Counted from the whole stretch's first letter, positions 3,217 to 62,392 are shown. The stretch: 62,392 nucleotides of DNA, filler included, from 9 parts of 9 records of this genome joined end to end with filler, not necessarily neighbours in it, one strand, 5' to 3'. Notes: generated by a model from the sequence alone, not told the origin. Numbers and translations are program-made.

Positions 3217-3895
3217 AAAGGGGCGCCGCAAGGCGGAGTGATCAGCCCTCTACTTGCCAACCTCTTTCTACATTATGCATTCGACGTGTGGATGTGGAGA
3301 AATCAGCCTCACATCCCGTTTTAACGTTTTACTGATGATGTGATTTGCCACTGCAAGAGTAAAAAACAGGCCAAGTGGCTAATGGCGGCCATTGAACGCC
3401 GCATGGCTGAATGCGGTCTGGAGTTTCATCCGCACAAGACAAAGATTGTCTACTGCAAGGATGACGATCGGCGTGGAAGTTATCCACAGGAGAAATTTGA
3501 TTTCTTCGGCTTTACGTTTAGGCCCGGGAGGTCAAAGAATCGGTGGGGGAAATCCTTCGTCAACTTCAGTCCGTCCGCGAGCAATAAAGCGCTCAAATCA
3601 ATGCGTCAAACCATGAGGGCCTGGCGTTTGCACTTATGTAGCGACAAATCCCTGGGTGACCTATCGCATGTTCAACCCGGTAATTCGGAGTTGGATAAAC
3701 TACTACAGTCGGTTTTACATGTCGGGGCTTTACCCGACCTTCCGACACCTGGACCGTACTTTGGCAAGGTGGGCGTCACGGAAATACAAACGGCTGAGGA
3801 GGCATAGCCGGCGGGCCGATCAGCAAAGCCTATCGCGAAGGCAGCCTGGCTTATTTGCCCACTGGCGTTTTCTTCAGTCTGAAGCTGGACAATAG
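3217..3895 (+). pseudogene. Group II intron reverse transcriptase/maturase remnant (inner intron)
   Basis: [22 protein letters not shown]; in-frame TAA at 3322-3324; YADD degenerated to FTDD; FDFFGFTF; frameshift near 3660 into NPVIRSWINYY (domain X); 5' part missing. Confidence 0.9.
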
Positions 3896-3968
3896 GAGAC
3901 GGATGAGCTGAGAGGTTCACGTCCGATTCTGTGAGAGGCCGGGGGGAGGTTCCCCCGGTCGATTCGAC
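3896..3968 (+). ncRNA. Group II intron domains V-VI (3' end of inner intron), catalytic triad apparently mutated
   Basis: GAGACGGATGAGCTGAGAGGTTCACGTCCGATTC (DV-like; AGA instead of AGC), GC-rich DVI hairpin CCGGGGG..CCCCCGG, ends TTCGAC. Confidence 0.85.
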
Positions 3969-4145: not shown

Positions 4146-4222
4146 GGTCTTCGTGCTTCCTCACCCAAGGATCACCCTCCTGGAAAGCCGGCGCTCGGTT
4201 AATCCGGGTTACCTGCCCGGAA

Positions 4223-4293
4223 GAGCCGGATGCGGTAACTCCCCACGTCCGGATCTGTGAGGGTGAAATCAAGTAATGAATGAACTACTCGAC
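4223..4293 (+). ncRNA. Group II intron domains V-VI (3' end of outer intron)
   Basis: GAGCCGGATGCGGTAACTCCCCACGTCCGGATC DV hairpin with AGC triad; ends CTACTCGAC. Confidence 0.85.
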
Positions 4294-16188: not shown

Positions 16189-18126
16189 TCAGGAACGGCG
16201 GCCGCCCTGGGGATATTCATTCAAAGGCCGCAGCCCGGGGCCGTCCCATTTTTCATATTCCCCGTCCTTTTCCAGCGCGTCGCTGACATAACCCAGGCCC
16301 AGGGATTCCATGGTTTGCCTTACCGGGACGCCGGTTATGGGATCGTAGCCATGGACCCGGTAGTAGGCCCGGACGGATTCAAAATGATCCTGCAGTTCTT
16401 TCCTGCCTTCTTCGGAAAACTTTTTGTCGGGCTTTTGAGGCAGGCAGTCATGTTCAGCCTTAATCCCCTGCCTGATGTTAAAAGCCCTTTCGATTGCATT
16501 TATCCGGTCGGCCGTCTTTTCAATTTTTTCACTGTCGAATTCAATGCCCGTGGCCGCGCCGATCAAATCCGCCAATCCCTGCCAGATGGGATTCTTCCAG
16601 ATTAGCGGCACCGCGCAGGTCCATGTGTTTACCGCGCCCTTGCAGCGTCCTATGGAATCGGCCAGGGCGGCCGCCCTTTCGCCGATAATAACATCGCTTA
16701 TCTCATCTCCGGCCAGCAAGCTTTCATCCACCATTCTTTTTAAAATATCCTCGTCGGAATTATCGCCGGCCGCCCAGCTTCTGCCGCGGAGATGATCGGC
16801 CCCCCGCGTCGAAACCGCGTGGGCCAATGCGAACAACCCGGGCGGATGCGGCCCTCTGCTCAATCCCTTGACATGGTAGCAATAATCCATGGCCTTATCG
16901 CCAAGGGCCTTAGCCAATCCGAACAATCCTTCGGCGACCACGGCCCCGAATCCCTCTCTCATGACGGTTCTGTGGATGAGTTCGATCTGGGATTCGGCAT
17001 CTTCCCAGTCGAGGCGAATCCCGCCCGTATCGTTCTCATCTATAATGCCCCGGTTATATAAATCCTTGGCCAGGGCAATTGTGTTGCCCACGGCTATGAC
17101 ATCGACTCCATATTTATCGGACAGGTTTTCCATTTCCATTATAGCCACAGGGTCTTCAATGCCGCAGTTGACGCCCAGGCAGTATATGCACTCGTATTCA
17201 AGCGCCTCCCCGATTTCGCCCTTGCGTCTCCCTGACGGGATTTCATAGATATTCTTACACTTGACATGACAGCTCTTACAACCGGCCCGGCCTGTTTCAT
17301 ACTCTTTCCAGGCTTCCGGCCTTAACGCCTCGGGAACTTCTTCCGGCTCCAGCTCCTTTTGAAAATTTCTATAGCCCGGACGCCAGTTAACCATGCCGTA
17401 ATGGGAGCCGTAAACGGAAGCAACTTCTTTCTGCACCCTGTCTTCGCGCAGATATTTGTTATCCGCGCCGGCCAGGGCCGCATATGTTTTTCTATCAGCC
17501 GTCTTTATTTTTCCACTGCCTTTTACCGCAATGGCCTTGATCTTCTTGGCCCCCCAAACCGCGCCGCTGCCCCTGGCCGCGGATGCATATTTGTCCACCA
17601 TGGTCGACGCCTGCCGGACCAGGTTTTCTCCAGCCTGTCCAATGCAGGCCGCGCTTATGCCCGGTCCGTGTTTTTCAATCAGGCGATCAGTCGTCTCCCA
17701 GACGTCCAGCCCCCACAAATCTGATGCATCGAGCAGTTCAACCTTTTCATCTTCTATAAGCAAATATACCGGTTTTTCCGCTTCGCCCCTTATCACAACC
17801 TGGTCGTAACCGGCTTTCTTAATGCCATGGGCAATTGATCCGCCCACGTTGCCGTCTCCCAAAATACCGCTATACGGAGAAAGCGTACTCACATGTAGGC
17901 GTCCGGTCAATCCAAGCGGCGTTCCGGTCAAAAGCCCGGGCGCAAGGCAAAGAATGTTTTCCGGCCCCAAGGGGTCGGCGCCCGGCGGGATCTCGTCAAA
18001 AAGCCTTTTGGCGTTCAATCCCCTTCCGCCAAGAAACATTTCCGCTTCTTTCGGGTCGAGGTCTTCTTTGACTATTTCCATTTTGGTCAGGTCTATAATT
18101 AGAATCCGTCCATTCCAGGAATACAT
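16189..18126 (-). CDS. Aldehyde:ferredoxin oxidoreductase (W/Mo AOR) family protein
   Basis: LGGRGL, DPLGPEN, CIGQAGENLV, CxxCxxxC (CKSCHVKC), EYE, STRGADH. Confidence 0.88.
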   Translation of the reverse strand: MYSWNGRILIIDLTKMEIVKEDLDPKEAEMFLGGRGLNAKRLFDEIPPGADPLGPENILCLAPGLLTGTPLGLTGRLHVSTLSPYSGILGDGNVGGSIAHGIKKAGYDQVVIRGEAEKPVYLLIEDEKVELLDASDLWGLDVWETTDRLIEKHGPGISAACIGQAGENLVRQASTMVDKYASAARGSGAVWGAKKIKAIAVKGSGKIKTADRKTYAALAGADNKYLREDRVQKEVASVYGSHYGMVNWRPGYRNFQKELEPEEVPEALRPEAWKEYETGRAGCKSCHVKCKNIYEIPSGRRKGEIGEALEYECIYCLGVNCGIEDPVAIMEMENLSDKYGVDVIAVGNTIALAKDLYNRGIIDENDTGGIRLDWEDAESQIELIHRTVMREGFGAVVAEGLFGLAKALGDKAMDYCYHVKGLSRGPHPPGLFALAHAVSTRGADHLRGRSWAAGDNSDEDILKRMVDESLLAGDEISDVIIGERAAALADSIGRCKGAVNTWTCAVPLIWKNPIWQGLADLIGAATGIEFDSEKIEKTADRINAIERAFNIRQGIKAEHDCLPQKPDKKFSEEGRKELQDHFESVRAYYRVHGYDPITGVPVRQTMESLGLGYVSDALEKDGEYEKWDGPGLRPLNEYPQGGRRS

Positions 18127-18413
18127 AAATACTCTCCCGGTTGCTTAGTTGATTATTAGGCCGCGTATATAGAAAACAGTTCCGCCTATTCTTATTATTT
18201 TAAAGCTCTGACAGCCCGACCGCAATAAACATGGCCGATGTCCTTGATTACGAAAACATATTGACACCTTTCCGCTTGCTTCCTAATATCCGTGGTAATC
18301 CATGCCGCATTACGGCGGATTGAATTAATTGCATCTTCGCCCGCCTCGACACTGGAATAAGGCCAAATTCATGGACAGGCGCCGACTGATAGCAAGACAG
18401 GATTGACACCATT

Positions 18414-56257: not shown

Positions 56258-56922
56258 ATGAAAAAAGGTATTTTGGCAACATTATTAACAGTAGTATTAT
56301 TAGCAGCGATGAGTACTGAGTCTTACGCATTATTCGGGTTCGGAAAGAAAAAGGATAAAAAACCTGCTAAAGCAAGAAAACAGTTCGTAACAATCGGAAC
56401 TGGAGGAGTTACTGGAGTTTACTACCCTACAGGTGGAGCAATCAGTAAAATGATTAACAAAAAAGATGAATATAATGTAAAAGCAACTGTTGAGTCGACA
56501 GGTGGATCAGTTTATAACATTAATGCAGTTATGACTGGAGATTTAGATTTCGGAATCGCTCAATCAGATAGACAGTATCAAGCATATAACGGTTCAGCTG
56601 GATCAGAATGGGAAGGAAAAGCTCAAAAAGATCTAAGAGCAGTATTTTCTATTCATCCTGAGTCAATCACATTAGTTGCATCAGCAGATGCTGGAATTGA
56701 TTCAGTAGCAGATTTAAAAGGTAAGAAAGTTAACTTAGGAAACGTTGGTTCAGGACAATTACAAAACGCTTTAGATGTTCTTGGAGCTTTAGGAATGTCA
56801 AAAGATGATGTTCAGGGAGAATATGTTAAAGCAGTAGAAGCACCGGGATTATTACAAGATGAAAGATTAGATGCTTTCTTCTATACTGTAGGACATCCAA
56901 GTGGAGCTATCAAAGAAGCAAC
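56258..56922 (+). CDS. TAXI family TRAP substrate-binding protein, truncated
   Basis: IGTGGVTGVYYPTG, STGGSVYN, GIAQSD. Confidence 0.92.
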
Positions 56923-57026
56923 NNNNNNNNNNNNNNNNNNNNNNNNNNNNNNNNNNNNNNNNNNNNTTAATTAATTAANNNNNNNNNNNNNNNNNNNNNN
57001 NNNNNNNNNNNNNNNNNNNNNNATTT

Positions 57027-57072
57027 CTCAGCAGCATGGCAGTGTGCCGCCTACGACGGGATGGTTGCACTG
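57027..57072 (+). repeat. 46-bp cassette-delimiting repeat, copy 1
   Basis: CTCAGCAGCATGGCAGTGTGCCGCCTACGACGGGATGGTTGCACTG. Confidence 0.85.
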
Positions 57073-57138
57073 CATTAAGCAAGGGTTTTTATTAAAGATA
57101 GCTTGACAAATCATGGATATGGACCTGATGTAAATTTT

Positions 57139-58119
57139 TCATTTTCCGGGAGGAACTATGTCATCAGGATAAAGATATGAAAGTCCAAGTCCAATGAGAA
57201 TAGGATATAAGAACATGAACATTCTGACCTCATACAAGATGCCAAATGTCACAAGGGGTAATACAAAAAACGGAATGGCTAAACTAAGGTTTTTGAGAAA
57301 TGGAGGTGCATTCTTATACCCTAGGAATGCAAATACCCAAAAGATTCCCACAAAAAGAGTAAGATGTGTAACTACTAATGTGAAACCAATTAATGAGCTG
57401 TCTATTGCCCATATTTGCTGAAATGATATGACTGGTCTTGCATTTCCCAATATAGTTCGGAGTCCTGCGTAGATCACTCCCCATATTAAAAGGTATAAAC
57501 AAAGCCATGAAACTGTATTGACAGGTATCTTTTTTGATTCTAAAATGTTCTTTATGTCAATACTTGTGAAAAAAAAGGCTACCGGTATAAATATTGAAGT
57601 CTCTCTGTTTAATGAAGCAACTATCATCAAGAGAGCGATTAATAGATGTTGCTGCTTGTATATCAATATCAATCCCAGTGTGAAAAGGCCGGTTTCAAGT
57701 AATGACCATGGTTGGTAGTTATGAAAATTGAATGCAAGAATTATAACAGTGGAAATGAATAAGATCCCAAACATAGAGTGTTCTTTTGTGAACCATATAG
57801 TTAAGAAATAATAGATGGTCAATAACAAAAAAAGAATTGCAATAAAGTCGTATATGGCATACGATAAATTAAATGAAATTTTATAGGAGAGAATCCTGGA
57901 AAACAGTTCAATGAAGACCTCATTCAAATATGGAACCAATACTCTATACCGATATGGATCAGCTGCCGTACCACTAATAATATGATCGTGAAGGACCATC
58001 CTGGTATTAATAGCGTCAAAATCTATCAGTCTGAAATATGTCAAAGATAGTGTAGCAGCTATCGATAAGATAATTGAATGATTTTTCCAGTCTGATTTAA
58101 TGGAAGATATGTACTTCAA
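57139..58119 (-). CDS. Polytopic membrane protein (possibly GT-C-like)
   Basis: About 8-9 hydrophobic segments; PYRYRVLVP and SLNRETS motifs. Confidence 0.7.
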   Translation of the reverse strand: MKYISSIKSDWKNHSIILSIAATLSLTYFRLIDFDAINTRMVLHDHIISGTAADPYRYRVLVPYLNEVFIELFSRILSYKISFNLSYAIYDFIAILFLLLTIYYFLTIWFTKEHSMFGILFISTVIILAFNFHNYQPWSLLETGLFTLGLILIYKQQHLLIALLMIVASLNRETSIFIPVAFFFTSIDIKNILESKKIPVNTVSWLCLYLLIWGVIYAGLRTILGNARPVISFQQIWAIDSSLIGFTLVVTHLTLFVGIFWVFAFLGYKNAPPFLKNLSLAIPFFVLPLVTFGILYEVRMFMFLYPILIGLGLSYLYPDDIVPPGK

Positions 58120-58380
58120 TTAGATTTCACTTCCTAAGAGTGTGAAGGGATATGTTCGTTTTTTGTGTTAGATTCGTACAAATATAAAGTTTTTTGTTTT
58201 GATTTTGTAGAATTATCAGAAACACATGGGCAAAGAAGACACTAAGTTTGAATAGTCGAAAGTCATGAATAACTATCATCATCCCGGAGGGTCCGGCGAA
58301 GCCCGCATGATCCGATAAAATGAAAAATAATCTGTTGCTTTCAACTCTTTTTCTGCATACCGGTACTTTAAAAATCGCTA

Positions 58381-58396
58381 TTTTTCTACAGAGCCA
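58381..58396 (-). mobile_element. Possible orphan IS terminal inverted repeat
   Basis: Minus strand GGCTCTGTAGAAAAA resembles, from memory, IS5-family ends in methanogens; no transposase present. Confidence 0.3.
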
Positions 58397-58744
58397 TATT
58401 ATTCATAATTCAAAAGGTATTTAGTAAAAAGTACAATATTCAATATGGTAGGTCCAGGCATTTGCTTCTTATATCAAACACCTTTCGAATTTATATATAT
58501 ATACTTCATAATGATTTAAGTACATGTGATGTATGATACATGGTATGTAGGTTAATGGGATATGTGCCAGAACGGTCAATGCAAAGGCCAGTCTTCAGAA
58601 GGAAAAAATATTTGTGCTGGATTTTGAGGACATAGGGAGTGTCCTGAGTAAGTTATATTGAATTTTTTTAGCTAAAACTATTCTGAACTATGTAGAGCAT
58701 AGTATGTTCATGCAAAATTTCATGCAGTATTCTACTTTTTACTT

Positions 58745-58790
58745 CTTAGCAGCACGGTAGTATGCCACCTTGGAAGAAATGGATTTTTAT
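58745..58790 (+). repeat. 46-bp repeat, copy 2 (degenerate)
   Basis: CTTAGCAGCACGGTAGTATGCCACCTTGGAAGAAATGG.. aligns without gaps to copy 1. Confidence 0.7.
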
Positions 58791-58830
58791 TATCTGGAAA
58801 ACGTTGTTTCTTTTAAAGCAAATTACTTAA

Positions 58831-59100
58831 TCATAAGAGCCATTTGTATCCATGTTCGCGGGAAAATATTTCAAGTATGTATACCACATCATCCTCAATG
58901 GCAAAAACCGCCCTGTAGTTACCTATACGCAAACGGTAAAGATCTTGTTTTCCTTTGCTACCTTTCAGTTTTTTAACATCCCCATCCAGAGGATTGTTTT
59001 CTGGTTTTCTCAGACCTTCAATAAGCCTGCTTTTTGTTTCTAAGTCCTGTGAACTCAGAAACTTCCTGACATGTGTATGTACAGTAATACTATATCCCAT
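58831..59100 (-). CDS. RelE/ParE family toxin
   Basis: DVKKLKG, LYRLRIGNYRAVF, IFSREHGY. Confidence 0.9.
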   Translation of the reverse strand: MGYSITVHTHVRKFLSSQDLETKSRLIEGLRKPENNPLDGDVKKLKGSKGKQDLYRLRIGNYRAVFAIEDDVVYILEIFSREHGYKWLL

Positions 59101-59111
59101 GCATCTCACTT

Positions 59112-59306
59112 TTAAATTTCATCAAGTGAAACGAACTGTTCTTTTTCCTCTAAACGCCTGTACATACGATCCATGAATTCCTCTTTGTCTACGGCATCCA
59201 TCAGGCGTTCAAGAATGTCGGTATAGGTATCTCCTTTCTGACCATAACTTTTCAGTCTGTTCCTCACTATTTTAGTAGTTGGGATAGTTGTTGTTTCTGC
59301 CATCAT
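59112..59306 (-). CDS. Putative antitoxin (archaeal RHH-like) paired with RelE
   Basis: TTTI..RNRLK..G.KGDTY.DILERL; acidic VSLDEI tail; directly upstream of toxin. Confidence 0.8.
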   Translation of the reverse strand: MMAETTTIPTTKIVRNRLKSYGQKGDTYTDILERLMDAVDKEEFMDRMYRRLEEKEQFVSLDEI

Positions 59307-59360
59307 TTCACCTTATTAAATGCAATGCGTTTTACATATAAACGGTTATTGGTTATTTAT

Positions 59361-59400
59361 AGTAACTTATAATAACTTATAATAGCTCATGATAACTTAT
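59361..59400. promoter_or_regulatory. Four tandem 10-bp units upstream of the TA operon (candidate operator)
   Basis: AGTAACTTAT AATAACTTAT AATAGCTCAT GATAACTTAT. Confidence 0.5.
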
Positions 59401-59482
59401 ACTCAATTCTCTCAAAAACAATAAGAAAAATAGCTTAATCTCTCAAGCTGAAGTAACAGGAAGAGATCTTTGTTTCTTACTC

Positions 59483-59528
59483 TTTAGCAGCATGTCAGTG
59501 TGCCGCCTGCGGTGGAGATGTTGTTTTA
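59483..59528 (+). repeat. 46-bp repeat, copy 3
   Basis: TTTAGCAGCATGTCAGTGTGCCGCCTGCGGTGGAGATGTTGTTTTA; overlaps the ATPase stop codon. Confidence 0.85.
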
Positions 59529-60944
59529 ATGTTTAAGCAAAATATCATCCATATCAAATAACATAACTCCTTTCTCTTTTAGAGTATCCTTGTTCTCTAT
59601 CGTTTTTGCAATGACTGCAAAGTATTCATTCCTTTCTTCGTTGTGCCACTTAACATATAATGCTTTTTTCCTGAGATCCCTTACTATTTTTCTTACGTCT
59701 TTAATTGCCAACGTTTTCCATTTACATTCAACGAACAGTATATTTTTTGAATCTTCATTTAATGCGACAAGGTCTATCTCATATGTATTTTTATTGTTTT
59801 GCTGTTCCCGGACCTTACCCCATTGCCTTCCAATCCTTTCAAAAGCAAAGGGTAATTTTTCAGTATTGTTGAGATCTATCAAGTATTGCCTGGATATGTC
59901 TTCGAAAACCGGGCCAAGATACCGATTGTAGGAATCATTTATTCTGGAGCCTATCATATTCCTGTTTACTTCCATCAGAGATCTTGAGGGGTATATGTAA
60001 GTATACCAGAATTTCATGAAGTTATCTGAAATAACGTAGATAGAACCTGTCTTTATATTCCTTGTACCTTTAAGGATTACAGGCCATTCCTTGTTTATGA
60101 AACCGAGACCAATGAGAACACGCAGATATTTTGGAATATTGTTTACAGGTATGTCAGTCCTTAGAGATATCTCAGAAACACGATTTTTACCCTCGGATAT
60201 GGCTTCAAGTATAAGTTCATATTTGGTTGGTTCCCTTAGCTCTTCTTTTAACAGGAAAGTAGCCTCATCATAAAGAAAAGTAGCTCTGTGCAGTATATTC
60301 TTATCGACGTTTTCCATGAAGGACAGGTCATTTTCGAATTTGTTCAGATAGGCAGGGACACCACCAAGACAGCCGTATATACGTACAAGTTCTTCCGCAT
60401 CTTTTTCAGGGAAAAATTGTGCCATGTGGATGAATTTCAAAGGTTCTACTTTGATCTGTCCGCTTCGACGACCATATAATGGAGATTTATAACCAAGAAC
60501 TTCATTCTCCATCATTCCTATACTTGAACCAAGAAGTATGAGCATGACATTGGCATCCTTAAGGTAGCTGTCCCATGCAGCCTGGAATGCTGACATCGAC
60601 GCTTTGCTACCCTCTATCAGATATGGTACTTCATCGATTATGATCACAGGCTTTTCACTGGTCTGCTGAGAAATAAATTTTAGTGCAGCATCCCATTTTG
60701 TTATCATTGGCTGATAGACAGCAAGCTGTTCAGATGCCTTTTCAAGGAAGTCCTCTACCTGATGTTCAAGATCAAGTTTTTGTGACAGGTAGTAAACAGA
60801 AGGCTTTTCGTCCCTGAATTTCAGTACAAGTTCTGTTTTCCCAACACGCCTTCTTCCATATATTACAATCAGTGACGAAGAATCACGAGAATATTCGGAT
60901 TCGAGGAATTCTAATTCTTCACTACGGTTGATAAACAGACTCAT
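59526..60944 (-). CDS. Archaeal ATPase (ATPase_2) with wHTH and C-terminal DUF234 PD-(D/E)XK-like domain
   Basis: FINRSEEL start, YGRRRVGKT, IIDE, SPLYGR, GGVPAYL, EIDLV..ECKW. Confidence 0.9.
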   Translation of the reverse strand: MSLFINRSEELEFLESEYSRDSSSLIVIYGRRRVGKTELVLKFRDEKPSVYYLSQKLDLEHQVEDFLEKASEQLAVYQPMITKWDAALKFISQQTSEKPVIIIDEVPYLIEGSKASMSAFQAAWDSYLKDANVMLILLGSSIGMMENEVLGYKSPLYGRRSGQIKVEPLKFIHMAQFFPEKDAEELVRIYGCLGGVPAYLNKFENDLSFMENVDKNILHRATFLYDEATFLLKEELREPTKYELILEAISEGKNRVSEISLRTDIPVNNIPKYLRVLIGLGFINKEWPVILKGTRNIKTGSIYVISDNFMKFWYTYIYPSRSLMEVNRNMIGSRINDSYNRYLGPVFEDISRQYLIDLNNTEKLPFAFERIGRQWGKVREQQNNKNTYEIDLVALNEDSKNILFVECKWKTLAIKDVRKIVRDLRKKALYVKWHNEERNEYFAVIAKTIENKDTLKEKGVMLFDMDDILLKH

Positions 60945-61119
60945 AATCCTAAGTATTACAAGTCTATAATATATAGATTTCTGCTGGTTGATATAGTAAC
61001 TTGTTGTTTTGCTGCAAGAGAGGTCAGCCTGAGTGAGATCGAAGCTGAGAACTGTTAGTATGGTCTTATTTTTTGCGTCAAATTCATAAAAGATTTTATG
61101 TAACTCTTTTCTTTTGCGG

Positions 61120-61165
61120 CTCAACAGTATGTCACAGTGCCGCCTTCGGCGGAACGGTTGCACTG
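61120..61165 (+). repeat. 46-bp repeat, copy 4
   Basis: CTCAACAGTATGTCACAGTGCCGCCTTCGGCGGAACGGTTGCACTG; 37/46 identical to copy 1 by hand count. Confidence 0.85.
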
Positions 61166-61203
61166 TCTTCCAGTGCAGTGATCTAAAATCACTTATAGTT
61201 CGT

Positions 61204-61428
61204 TCACTTGTGCAATTCAATGAATTCCTCAACAGTAAGTCCTGTTATCCTGATCAACTGCCTTAATAATCCCGGTTTTAATTCTTTGTGCTTCGGGACG
61301 GTCAAAGTGACCTTTGAACCTTATTTTCTTAGAACAACATGACTTCCAACCTGTCTGTGGGGGTACCATCCTTCTTTAGAGAAGGCTTTTATTGTCTTTA
61401 TCCCGGAAATGACAGGTAATTTTGACAT
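61204..61428 (-). pseudogene. hicA: HicA toxin with premature stop at codon 36 (not in ORF track)
   Basis: MSKLPVISG..GW...RQVGSHVVLRK*GSKVTLTVPKHKELKPGLLRQLI; TAA at 61321-61323; TAATG coupling to hicB. Confidence 0.85.
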
Positions 61429-61646
61429 TAAGCTATCACTTCGACTATTTTACAGGAAGGACTGACCATACATGTTTCCAGCTCATCCTCAGCAAGTGAT
61501 TCAAGACATGCCTGTATTGCCTCTTTGATGTTATCGAGGGCTTCTTCAACGGTATCACCCTGTGAAACACAGCCTGGTAATCCGGAACAGCTTACAATAT
61601 AACCGCCGGCTTCTTCATCTTCTTTAAGAATAACTCTGAACCGCAT
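61428..61646 (-). CDS. hicB: HicB antitoxin (short form)
   Basis: GGYIVSCSGLPGCVSQGDTVEEALDNIKEAI. Confidence 0.9.
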   Translation of the reverse strand: MRFRVILKEDEEAGGYIVSCSGLPGCVSQGDTVEEALDNIKEAIQACLESLAEDELETCMVSPSCKIVEVIA

Positions 61647-61786
61647 ATTTATGTTATTAGTTGCTCTTTGCCTAAATAGGTATAATGTAGCGCTGTATAG
61701 GGTCCTTTTACATTTTAGTGACAAACTACCTGCTTGATGGGTACTATATCAAAAGCAATCTTGATTTCGAGACTTGCTTTTTACAT

Positions 61787-61832
61787 CTCAGCAGCATGGC
61801 AACGCGCCGCCTGCGTCGGAGCAGTTGCTCTG
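61787..61832 (+). repeat. 46-bp repeat, copy 5
   Basis: CTCAGCAGCATGGCAACGCGCCGCCTGCGTCGGAGCAGTTGCTCTG; 36/46 identical to copy 1 by hand count. Confidence 0.85.
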
Positions 61833-61928
61833 CCTGAAATATCATTCAAAACCGATTTCATTTTGAATAGTCCTGCACGATATTTAATAATCATGATAAC
61901 CTATGTATGTGCAGTGAGCTGTCATATT

Positions 61929-62219
61929 ATGGTAGAGATGCAGATTGACAAATACAGAAAAACCATAGTTCCGATATTGCTGAAAAATGATGTAGATAAA
62001 GCTGGCATCTTTGGTTCCTTTGCAAGGAATGAGGCACAAAAGGATAGCGATATAGATATTCTTGTTCATTTCAAGAGCAGAAAGAGTCTTTTTGATCTTG
62101 TCAGATTAGAGTTGGAACTTGAAAAAGAAGCCCGAAGAAAGGTAGAAGTTATTACTTACAATTCTATAAATCCCCTTATAAAGAATCGAATTCTGGAAGA
62201 AGAAGTGAAGATATTATGA
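61929..62219 (+). CDS. Minimal nucleotidyltransferase (MntA-type antitoxin)
   Basis: FGSFARNEAQKDSDIDILV (GS-x10-DxD). Confidence 0.9.
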   Translation: MVEMQIDKYRKTIVPILLKNDVDKAGIFGSFARNEAQKDSDIDILVHFKSRKSLFDLVRLELELEKEARRKVEVITYNSINPLIKNRILEEEVKIL

Positions 62220-62392
62220 AAAATAATGAAGTTTTTATTGGACATATAGTCGATTCTATTGAGAAAATAGAGCACTTCACATGCAATAAAAGCAGAGATG
62301 ATTTTCTAGAGGATGTACAACTTCAGGATGCAACTATCAGAAGAATTGAGATTATCGGTGAAGCATCAAAAAATATCTCTGAAGAGTTTAAA
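62216..62392 (+). CDS. HEPN/DUF86 (HepT-type) toxin, truncated at window end
   Basis: ATGA overlap with MNT; ..QDATIRRIEIIGEASKNI. Confidence 0.88.
   Translation, partial: MKNNEVFIGHIVDSIEKIEHFTCNKSRDDFLEDVQLQDATIRRIEIIGEASKNISEEFK

Follow-up and report, generated by a model that had tools for sequence, protein, structure and literature searches.

The question raised by this locus is whether a short repeat that recurs between toxin-antitoxin (TA) and ATPase genes of an archaeon is the dedicated site of a gene-cassette system. The repeat, here called R, is about 46 nt long, with two 13-nt arms around a 3-nt centre, and is present in five copies in the last piece of the window (the whole stretch of DNA analysed, 62,392 nt with its filler). 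An earlier description made from the DNA alone (the sequence-only reading) had regarded the locus as an array of modules delimited by R and had proposed a non-canonical cassette capture or shuffling system with its own recombination site. Based on searches of related genomes and comparison of breakpoints, R is considered here, with moderate confidence, to be a family of short dispersed intergenic repeats acting as a recombination joint in TA/ATPase islands. The recurrent layout and the reshuffled modules of the proposed capture system were retained in this view, whereas the dispersal of the site, the lack of a linked recombinase and the junctions without R are at odds with such a system.

The window is a pseudo-molecule of nine contigs (GC content of the pieces, 0.24-0.58) joined by eight linkers, each an N run, TTAATTAATTAA and a further N run; a finding of any kind that reaches across a linker here is artefactual. 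The repeat array lies wholly within the last, Methanolobus-like piece (57029-62392), which corresponds at full identity to a 5,898-nt contig of a sequencing run. The left end of that contig is 6 nt left of R copy 1, and its right end extends 528 nt past that of the window. That the contig stops at copy 1 would suit an assembly broken at a repeat and suggests several copies in the source genome. The Methanosarcinaceae-like host proposed earlier was supported by the ATPase of the array, which shows 89% protein and 86% DNA identity to those of Methanolobus sp. WCC5 (G001, complete genome), M. vulcani (G002) and M. bombayensis (G003). The next best match is the membrane-protein gene (Table 1), and no species-level relative was found among 177 genomes of the family Methanosarcinaceae. 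The remark that no recombinase is on the contig carries little weight either way, because the relevant contig is short (only about 5.9 kb) and is one of nine joined.

The repeat search returned one family of five direct, gap-free copies, 60-77% identical to copy 1 over 53 nt, with 18 of 55 alignment columns invariant and a spacing of 667-1718 nt. A covariance model (R1) built from 21 copies, five from the window and 16 from Methanolobus loci, gave the five copies scores of 31.9-45.1 bits (E 8e-9 to 4e-5 over the 389 kb searched) and gave no further copy in the other eight pieces of the window (remaining 57 kb). Both searches support the five same-orientation copies originally described. The relatives were found via the ATPase protein, and a scan of genome contigs with an exact 21-base pattern gave no match. 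The distances from copies 1-4 to the stop codon of the minus-strand gene on the right are 66 nt, 40 nt, an overlap and 38 nt, in agreement with the claim that a copy lies 0-70 bp past the last stop of each of the four minus-strand modules; the overlap of copy 3 with the ATPase stop is also present in Methanolobus orthologues. On the other hand, the inner CCGCC-N3-GGCGG hairpin holds without reservation for copy 4 only, since the stem has one mismatch or wobble in each of copies 1, 3 and 5 and is degenerate in copy 2.

Copies of R cluster in co-oriented arrays in G001, G049, G121 and G003, as the sequence-only reading had anticipated. At least two co-oriented sites less than 4 kb apart, one per cassette, are found in the window and in all four of these genomes; this wording of an attC cluster is that of an archaeal integron survey (PMC9668308). 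Of the 33 R matches in G001, 20 lie within 60 kb, and with search filters off the arrays comprise 11 '+' copies at 614.8-639.6 kb and nine '-' copies at 659.0-673.8 kb, together with one weak AT-rich match. The array genes encode HEPN-MNT, ParE, PIN, UPF0175, ATPase_2/DUF234, AAA_14/DUF4143, Fic-like and PD-(D/E)XK proteins, and the two arrays flank a polysaccharide-synthesis cluster. Nine of the ten DUF234/DUF4143 ATPase genes of G001 have R within 700 bp; seven of its 13 scattered R copies abut ATPase/TA modules (such ATPases or a ParE pair), and four or five lie between housekeeping genes. In G049, all eight copies of a first array are '+', starting 100 nt after argG and with one TA pair per interval on either strand; a glycosylation cluster follows, and then seven of seven '-' copies with ParE, RelB-ParE and DUF234 and DUF4143 ATPases. 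The orientation of R is constant within an array whichever strand the genes use. Because the flanks of the G049 copies are mostly unique, their co-orientation is not a by-product of segmental duplication; these copies carry no terminal inverted repeats (TIRs). G121 possesses six of six '+' copies in 4.6 kb, among MazE-PIN, MqsA-like, HicB and HicA genes and a decayed DUF234 ATPase gene, and G003 possesses two runs of five '+' copies. R is more alike within one genome than between genomes. As a separate observation, a surface-polysaccharide/glycosyltransferase cluster of about 19 kb separates the facing '+' and '-' arrays both in G001 (614-674 kb) and in G049 (582-616 kb); the cluster genes of the two species are not alignable as DNA.

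It had been suggested that module content and order would differ between relatives with breakpoints inside the repeat; content does differ and some breakpoints are at R, but several junctions are without it. The ATPase cassette was found in five contexts. Its homology to the window begins inside the core of R copy 3 (59497/59502) in three of four Methanolobus loci and just right of a degenerate R copy in M. vulcani, and the sequence left of that core differs in each locus. The interval from the conserved membrane-protein gene to HicA contains the RelE and ATPase modules in the window and four or five other modules in G121. The window retains the last ~50 nt of an MqsA-like gene, followed by R copy 4, with MNT-HEPN beyond copy 5; M. 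bombayensis and G121 both have the whole MqsA-like gene, with an R copy after it. Between G001 and G116 (94-96% identical), the ParE cassette shared by both starts precisely where R ends on its 3' side, and the left flanks differ. The left flank in G001 is joined in G116 via an R to a different sequence, and a 1.76-kb segment beside that R, consisting of an ATPase gene and a MITE (miniature inverted-repeat transposable element), is present in G001 and absent from G116.

R is not confined to such islands. Of 101 genomes sampled from the family, 31 gave matches to R1 at E<=1e-3, the copy counts in several of the 101 being lower bounds. The complete genome G073 contains at least 136 copies (136 matches among the best 150 of 647 candidates scored) over 3.3 Mb in both orientations, with 75 of 135 neighbouring pairs sharing orientation among the matches listed. 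Twenty G073 loci were fetched and 19 examined; R is intergenic in all 19, and the 38 neighbouring open reading frames are mostly ordinary genes, with TA genes (HicA, ParE) at two loci. The neighbours include genes for an MCP chemotaxis receptor, a histidine kinase, ThiC, symporter/transporters, an ABC ATPase, peptidase U32, a PfkB kinase, MoaE/MobB, PAPS reductase and FKBP. The full list for G036 holds 31 dispersed copies without a replichore pattern; a replication-strand bias of R, hinted at by a partial G036 list, was gone in the full list and in G073. Furthermore, 14 of 36 genomes of the genus carry R at the orthologous site 3' of fibrillarin, 30-60 nt from the stop codon, and the other 22 lack it there. 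The copies in G073, in G036 and at fibrillarin contradict the view of R as a site specific to a cassette system, and dispersal beside housekeeping genes, which the sequence-only reading had itself named as refuting, is what G073 and the fibrillarin site display.

A possible mechanism is proposed from these comparisons. R is the conserved GC-hairpin core of a dispersed repeat family of Methanolobus and related Methanosarcinaceae. In some species, R is carried in a MITE-like, TIR-bounded element of 215-330 bp scattered by the hundred, mostly at the 3' ends of ordinary genes; in other species, about 12-33 copies reside mostly in TA/ATPase islands with one co-oriented copy per inter-module gap, and the window contains a 5.9-kb fragment of such an island. 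R may then function as a portable joint, at which R-by-R exchange inserts, deletes, duplicates and reorders modules while their direction is kept. This exchange could proceed by homologous recombination on the 45-50-nt core and shared flanks, or by means of an unlinked enzyme in trans. Since R-by-R exchange through circle integration, unequal crossing-over or segment replacement after DNA uptake preserves direct orientation, one co-oriented copy per module could arise without a linked integrase. What is observed is the repeat family and its scatter, the arrays, the rearrangement ends at R and the missing linked recombinase; that R itself is the substrate of exchange, and the manner in which it spread, we infer.

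Several observations weigh against this mechanism. A core of 45-50 nt is short for efficient homologous recombination, and uniform orientation is equally expected of a site-specific system. The first array of G001 is largely segmentally duplicated, so that 11 of 11 counts more events than were independent. On its right side, in the promoter region, the ATPase homology stops at 60992, 127 nt short of R copy 4; in M. bombayensis, an MNT-HEPN-MqsA module adjoins the ATPase with no R between them; and R is missing both from the right end of the ParE cassette, at its junction with the next cassette, in G116 and from the junction of HEPN-MNT with the next module in G001. The breakpoint comparison covered one genome per species. 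Neither circular nor alternative R joints were seen in the contigs of two DNA runs, which contain repeat-induced pseudo-joints only and no clean R-to-R junction; one run probably represents the sample of origin. In addition, the cross-species conservation of the R core at the fibrillarin site could reflect a cis-acting function.

Of the alternatives, a true site-specific, integron-like system has first to be weighed, in which an unlinked recombinase (XerA, another tyrosine recombinase or another enzyme) captures and excises circular cassettes at R and the dispersed copies are solitary sites or gene-less cassettes. Such a system, which we regard as unlikely, would account for the co-oriented arrays with one R per module, unique flanks and cassettes of 0.6-1.7 kb, and for the breakpoints exactly at the R 3' edge between G001 and G116. 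It would also account for a composite element that in G121 is flanked by two R copies, its parts being circularly permuted (R-right part, then module A-left part-R; the parts are described below), as circle integration at R would give. The TA-rich content is likewise as in bacterial and archaeal integrons, according to the survey (PMC9668308). In the R family consensus, an outer AAC...GTT pairing is retained around the inner stem, with 84% of cells paired. No gene of PF00589, PF16795 or PF01797 was found in or beside the G001 and G049 arrays, however, and the suggestion of a linked tyrosine recombinase or transposase was not upheld there. PF00589 had no match within 600-680 kb of G001 (five elsewhere, at 26, 56, 407, 912 and 1393 kb) and none beside the G049 arrays. 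A link to an archaeal SSV-type integrase, considered on account of one gene 20 kb from a G001 array beside a weak R match (E 0.45), was dropped in the absence of such linkage in G049, G073, G003 and G121. We know of no phage integrase that uses R.

The repeat itself also departs from integron sites. attC sites are about 57-141 nt long, with the outer boxes RYYYAAC (R'') and GTTRRRY (R'). The attC-like ends attributed to copy 4 exist in part: GCTCAAC is found there and in no other copy, the left end being CTCAGC or TTAGC in copies 1, 2, 3 and 5, so that the RYYYAAC box is missing from four of the five, and the right box GTTGCAC is off by one position from GTTRRRY and is absent from copies 2 and 3. 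Ten single-strand DNA folds (five copies, two strands) gave z -1.50 to +0.73 relative to shuffles, none significant, which accords with the earlier statement that the repeats are shorter than attC (46 nt) and lack an end-to-end fold. Among 81 distinct R copies there is no RNA-structure covariation, with 89.5% of cells paired versus 89.4% in shuffles and a double-sided (compensatory) change in one of 599 cells. On boxes, length, fold and integrase, R falls short of the attC class. The junctions without R, and the at least 136 mixed-orientation copies that lie beside housekeeping genes in G073 inside a TIR-bounded element, are further evidence against an integron-like system. In the available part of PMC9668308, Methanoperedens and ANME-1 are listed as hosts, and Methanolobus is not among them, being mentioned only as BLAST subjects in the supplement. 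A bolder, and in our estimation rather improbable, version holds that Methanolobus and relatives may use integrase-unlinked integron-like exchange. A trans-acting recombinase, either of the host or an orphan, would cut at a 34-50-nt "mini-attC" hairpin with outer AAC...GTT pairing and thereby stack TA/ATPase modules, in co-oriented arrays, beside surface-polysaccharide clusters, and MITE-like composites would be gene-less cassettes that seed the site chromosome-wide.

R may alternatively be mainly cis-acting, as a hairpin of the 3'-untranslated-region or terminator type, as an insulator that separates autoregulated TA operons, or as a site bound by a host DNA-binding protein, in which case the arrays merely reflect many short operons needing one R each. 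This explanation, also given a low probability here, fits the position just past the stop of a convergent gene, where 13 of the 19 G073 copies and four of the window's five lie, as well as the hairpin followed by a T-run on the '+' strand of R in G073. Alignment of 15 fibrillarin sites revealed that in G057 and G003 the site is cleanly empty, the spacer being about 25 nt, and that filled sites exceed the empty ones by about 90-130 nt; in the filled sites the R core is conserved across species, as a cis-acting element would be, while its flanks, including the left arm, are unalignable; no clear target-site duplication could be read from the filled and empty sites. Sequence rather than pairing is conserved, as would be expected if R spread by copy-and-paste or gene conversion or is bound by a protein; RNA structure is left unsupported. 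In contrast, the window genes adjacent to R read it antisense with no T-run after the hairpin, neither the window nor G001 conserves the T-run, and the orientation in arrays is constant regardless of gene strand. The 22 of 36 genomes without R at fibrillarin and the breakpoints at R are also left unexplained by a cis-acting role. No Rfam family matched the window piece at E<=1, and on the G073 composite only a chance-level CD-box snoRNA match was obtained (16.9 bits versus a gathering score of 95); a C/D-box sRNA reading of a G001 variant was dropped because the motif is not kept in other genomes. Separately, a block beside the SAM synthetase gene (L042 1719-2109; G001 2.1455 Mb), containing a tRNA gene (1992-2064), is 80-90% conserved in 34 of 36 genomes of the genus. 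It adjoins fibrillarin in G001 and G116, and the two are ~30 kb apart in most other genomes that have both on one contig; this difference is a rearrangement with one end near an R copy.

In G073, R lies mid-way in a conserved composite of ~330 bp at 17-18 of the 19 sampled loci. The composite consists of a left "module A" with two small hairpins, followed by a ~215-bp unit whose ends are an inverted ~14-nt word. The TIRs that characterize MITEs are present on the G073 composite and on a 180-bp G001 element and absent from the five window copies, and the whole window piece contains the single TIR listed in Table 1. In G073 and G121, the ~330-bp composite has module A as its left part, and the module A and TIR element of the window reaches ~17x summed contig depth in the source run, i.e., it is multi-copy. 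A repeat element sits at the 3' end of the membrane-protein gene, oriented one way in the window and the other way in G121, and the two insertions were therefore independent. A related MITE with the same ends and no R is dispersed in G001. No parent insertion sequence (IS) was identified for the R composite among the DDE and IS200/IS605 elements met in passing, the only ones considered. As an additional observation, tandem arrays in which an 86-88-bp palindromic unit of CGCAGAT-type words is repeated 6 to ~14 times occur in G001 at 628.3-628.9 kb (L007 8278-8841) and 657.2-658.4 kb (L008 ~17150-18367), next to several R copies and on either side of a DDE transposase gene; the related 180-bp TIR element is dispersed in G001 with at least six further copies.

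The only IS found next to R is an IS200/IS605 element in M. vulcani, which ends 4-9 nt before R. An origin of R from its right end or from a TnpB guide RNA was rejected, since the four other copies of this IS all have unrelated flanks. This element (L002 11845-13500) has divergent tnpA/tnpB and matching end hairpins, its four further copies are in M. bombayensis, and all copies begin TTTATCAC and end GTAGTTCAC. That R copies are inert MITE or IS-end remnants tolerated in TA islands, with no role in rearrangement, is very improbable: the TIR-bounded element of G073, the R-less MITE of G001 and the independent insertions at the membrane-protein gene are what it would predict, but random insertion would not yield 8/8, 7/7, 6/6 and 5/5 co-orientation with unique flanks, TIRs are absent from the window and G049 copies, the flanks of the sole adjacent IS disagree in 4/4 other copies, and Y1 transposases are absent from three genomes rich in R.

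Among known systems, R as a recombination joint most readily invites comparison with five. Clusters of attC sites lacking integrases (CALINs) and sedentary chromosomal integrons (Vibrio cholerae repeats, VCRs) share with R one co-oriented short repeat per small module, TA-rich content, module sets that vary between relatives and repeats more alike within than between genomes. Unlike attC/CALIN sites, R has 46 nt, lacks the boxes in most copies, does not fold end to end and has no IntI nearby (PF00589 profile); the genes in its arrays are on either strand, and R also occurs singly at housekeeping loci and in the MITE-like element. Repetitive extragenic palindromes (REPs), bacterial interspersed mosaic elements (BIMEs) and REP doublets (REPINs), mobilized by REP-associated tyrosine transposases (RAYTs) in Proteobacteria, resemble R as short GC-rich extragenic imperfect palindromes in tens to hundreds of copies, often past the stops of convergent genes. 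Inverted doublets, in contrast, were not seen for R, and to our knowledge co-oriented arrays are not a REP trait. A RAYT link was rejected because Y1 genes (PF01797) gave 0 matches in G001, G036 and G056, three genomes with 31 to at least 58 R copies; G073 has one clear match, at 1.83 Mb, with no R within 20 kb among the matches listed.

Neisseria intergenic mosaic elements (dRS3/RS) and minimal mobile elements are short repeats that bracket exchangeable modules and serve as recombination or integration points. R and dRS3/RS both bracket exchangeable modules between conserved genes, but R is archaeal and unrelated in sequence. The pdif modules of Acinetobacter plasmids are Xer-dependent and often carry TA pairs, with 28-bp 11-6-11 sites in alternating orientation. 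As with R, pdif sites bound small, often TA, modules found in varied contexts; R differs in its 13-nt arms and 3-nt centre, direct orientation and chromosomal location. Prokaryotic MITEs match R in G073, where it is borne by a 215-330-bp non-coding, TIR-bounded, high-copy intergenic element, whereas each of the five copies in the window consists of the 46-nt core alone and has no TIRs. No description of R was found in the searchable literature, and the R family appears to be a previously undescribed dispersed repeat, REP-like in size and placement and, in one species or more, borne by a MITE-like element. Few genes of methanogens are as mobile and as poorly understood as those for TA systems and archaeal ATPases (DUF234/DUF4143). 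One short repeat, scattered through a genus and found at nearly every island module boundary and at breakpoints, provides a testable handle on archaeal gene-cassette turnover. R may also be an archaeal counterpart of REP elements, and it cautions against integron-style readings of co-oriented repeat arrays.

The gene modules of the window and their coordinates are summarized in Table 1. One module per repeat interval was confirmed, and a Pfam-type domain search agrees with the module contents first assigned, except that HicA is broken by an in-frame stop. The 10-bp tandem repeat upstream of the DUF7557 antitoxin is probably, from its position, the operator of the ParE/RelE pair.

Table 1. Features of the array-bearing piece and the linkers of the window (positions counted from the first letter of the window)
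Feature	Position	Strand	Evidence or remark
Linkers	7303, 15379, 22225, 29073, 36537, 42716, 48402, 56967	.	N-TTAATTAATTAA-N
Artificial contig linker (N run, TTAATTAATTAA, N run)	56917..57023	.	everything leftward is other contigs and organisms
R copy 1	57027..57072	+	44.9 bits; at very start of source contig
Multi-pass membrane protein, 326 aa, no Pfam family	57139..58119	-	81% DNA identity to G121 locus
Module A (two small GC hairpins, 58262-58338) and one MITE terminal inverted repeat (58383-58395)	58262..58395	+	sequence comparison
R copy 2, most degenerate	58745..58790	+	31.9 bits
ParE/RelE-family toxin	58831..59109	-	PF05016, E 5.5e-8
Putative antitoxin, DUF7557	59112..59306	-	E 1.8e-5, barely under cut-off
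10-bp tandem repeat, 4.5 units	59357..59401	.	directly upstream of DUF7557 antitoxin start
R copy 3, overlaps ATPase stop codon	59483..59528	+	45.1 bits
ATPase_2 + winged helix-turn-helix (wHTH) + DUF234 "archaeal ATPase"	59526..60947	-	domain and protein search
MqsA-like zinc-finger antitoxin gene, 3'-end remnant	61009..61058	+	comparison with M. bombayensis, G121
R copy 4, sole perfect inner stem	61120..61165	+	40.1 bits
HicA toxin gene, in-frame TAA after codon 36	61204..61429	-	G121 orthologue intact, 89% DNA identity
HicB-like antitoxin, intact	61428..61646	-	domain search
R copy 5, between divergent HicB and MNT starts	61787..61832	+	44.0 bits
MNT nucleotidyltransferase (antitoxin)	61929..62219	+	domain search
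HepT/HEPN RNase toxin, cut by window end	62216..62392	+	domain search

Apart from the array, the first, unrelated contig of the window gave two matches to RF00029 (group II intron domain) on the + strand, at 3894-3968 and 4221-4293 (42.9 and 41.2 bits), 330 nt apart.

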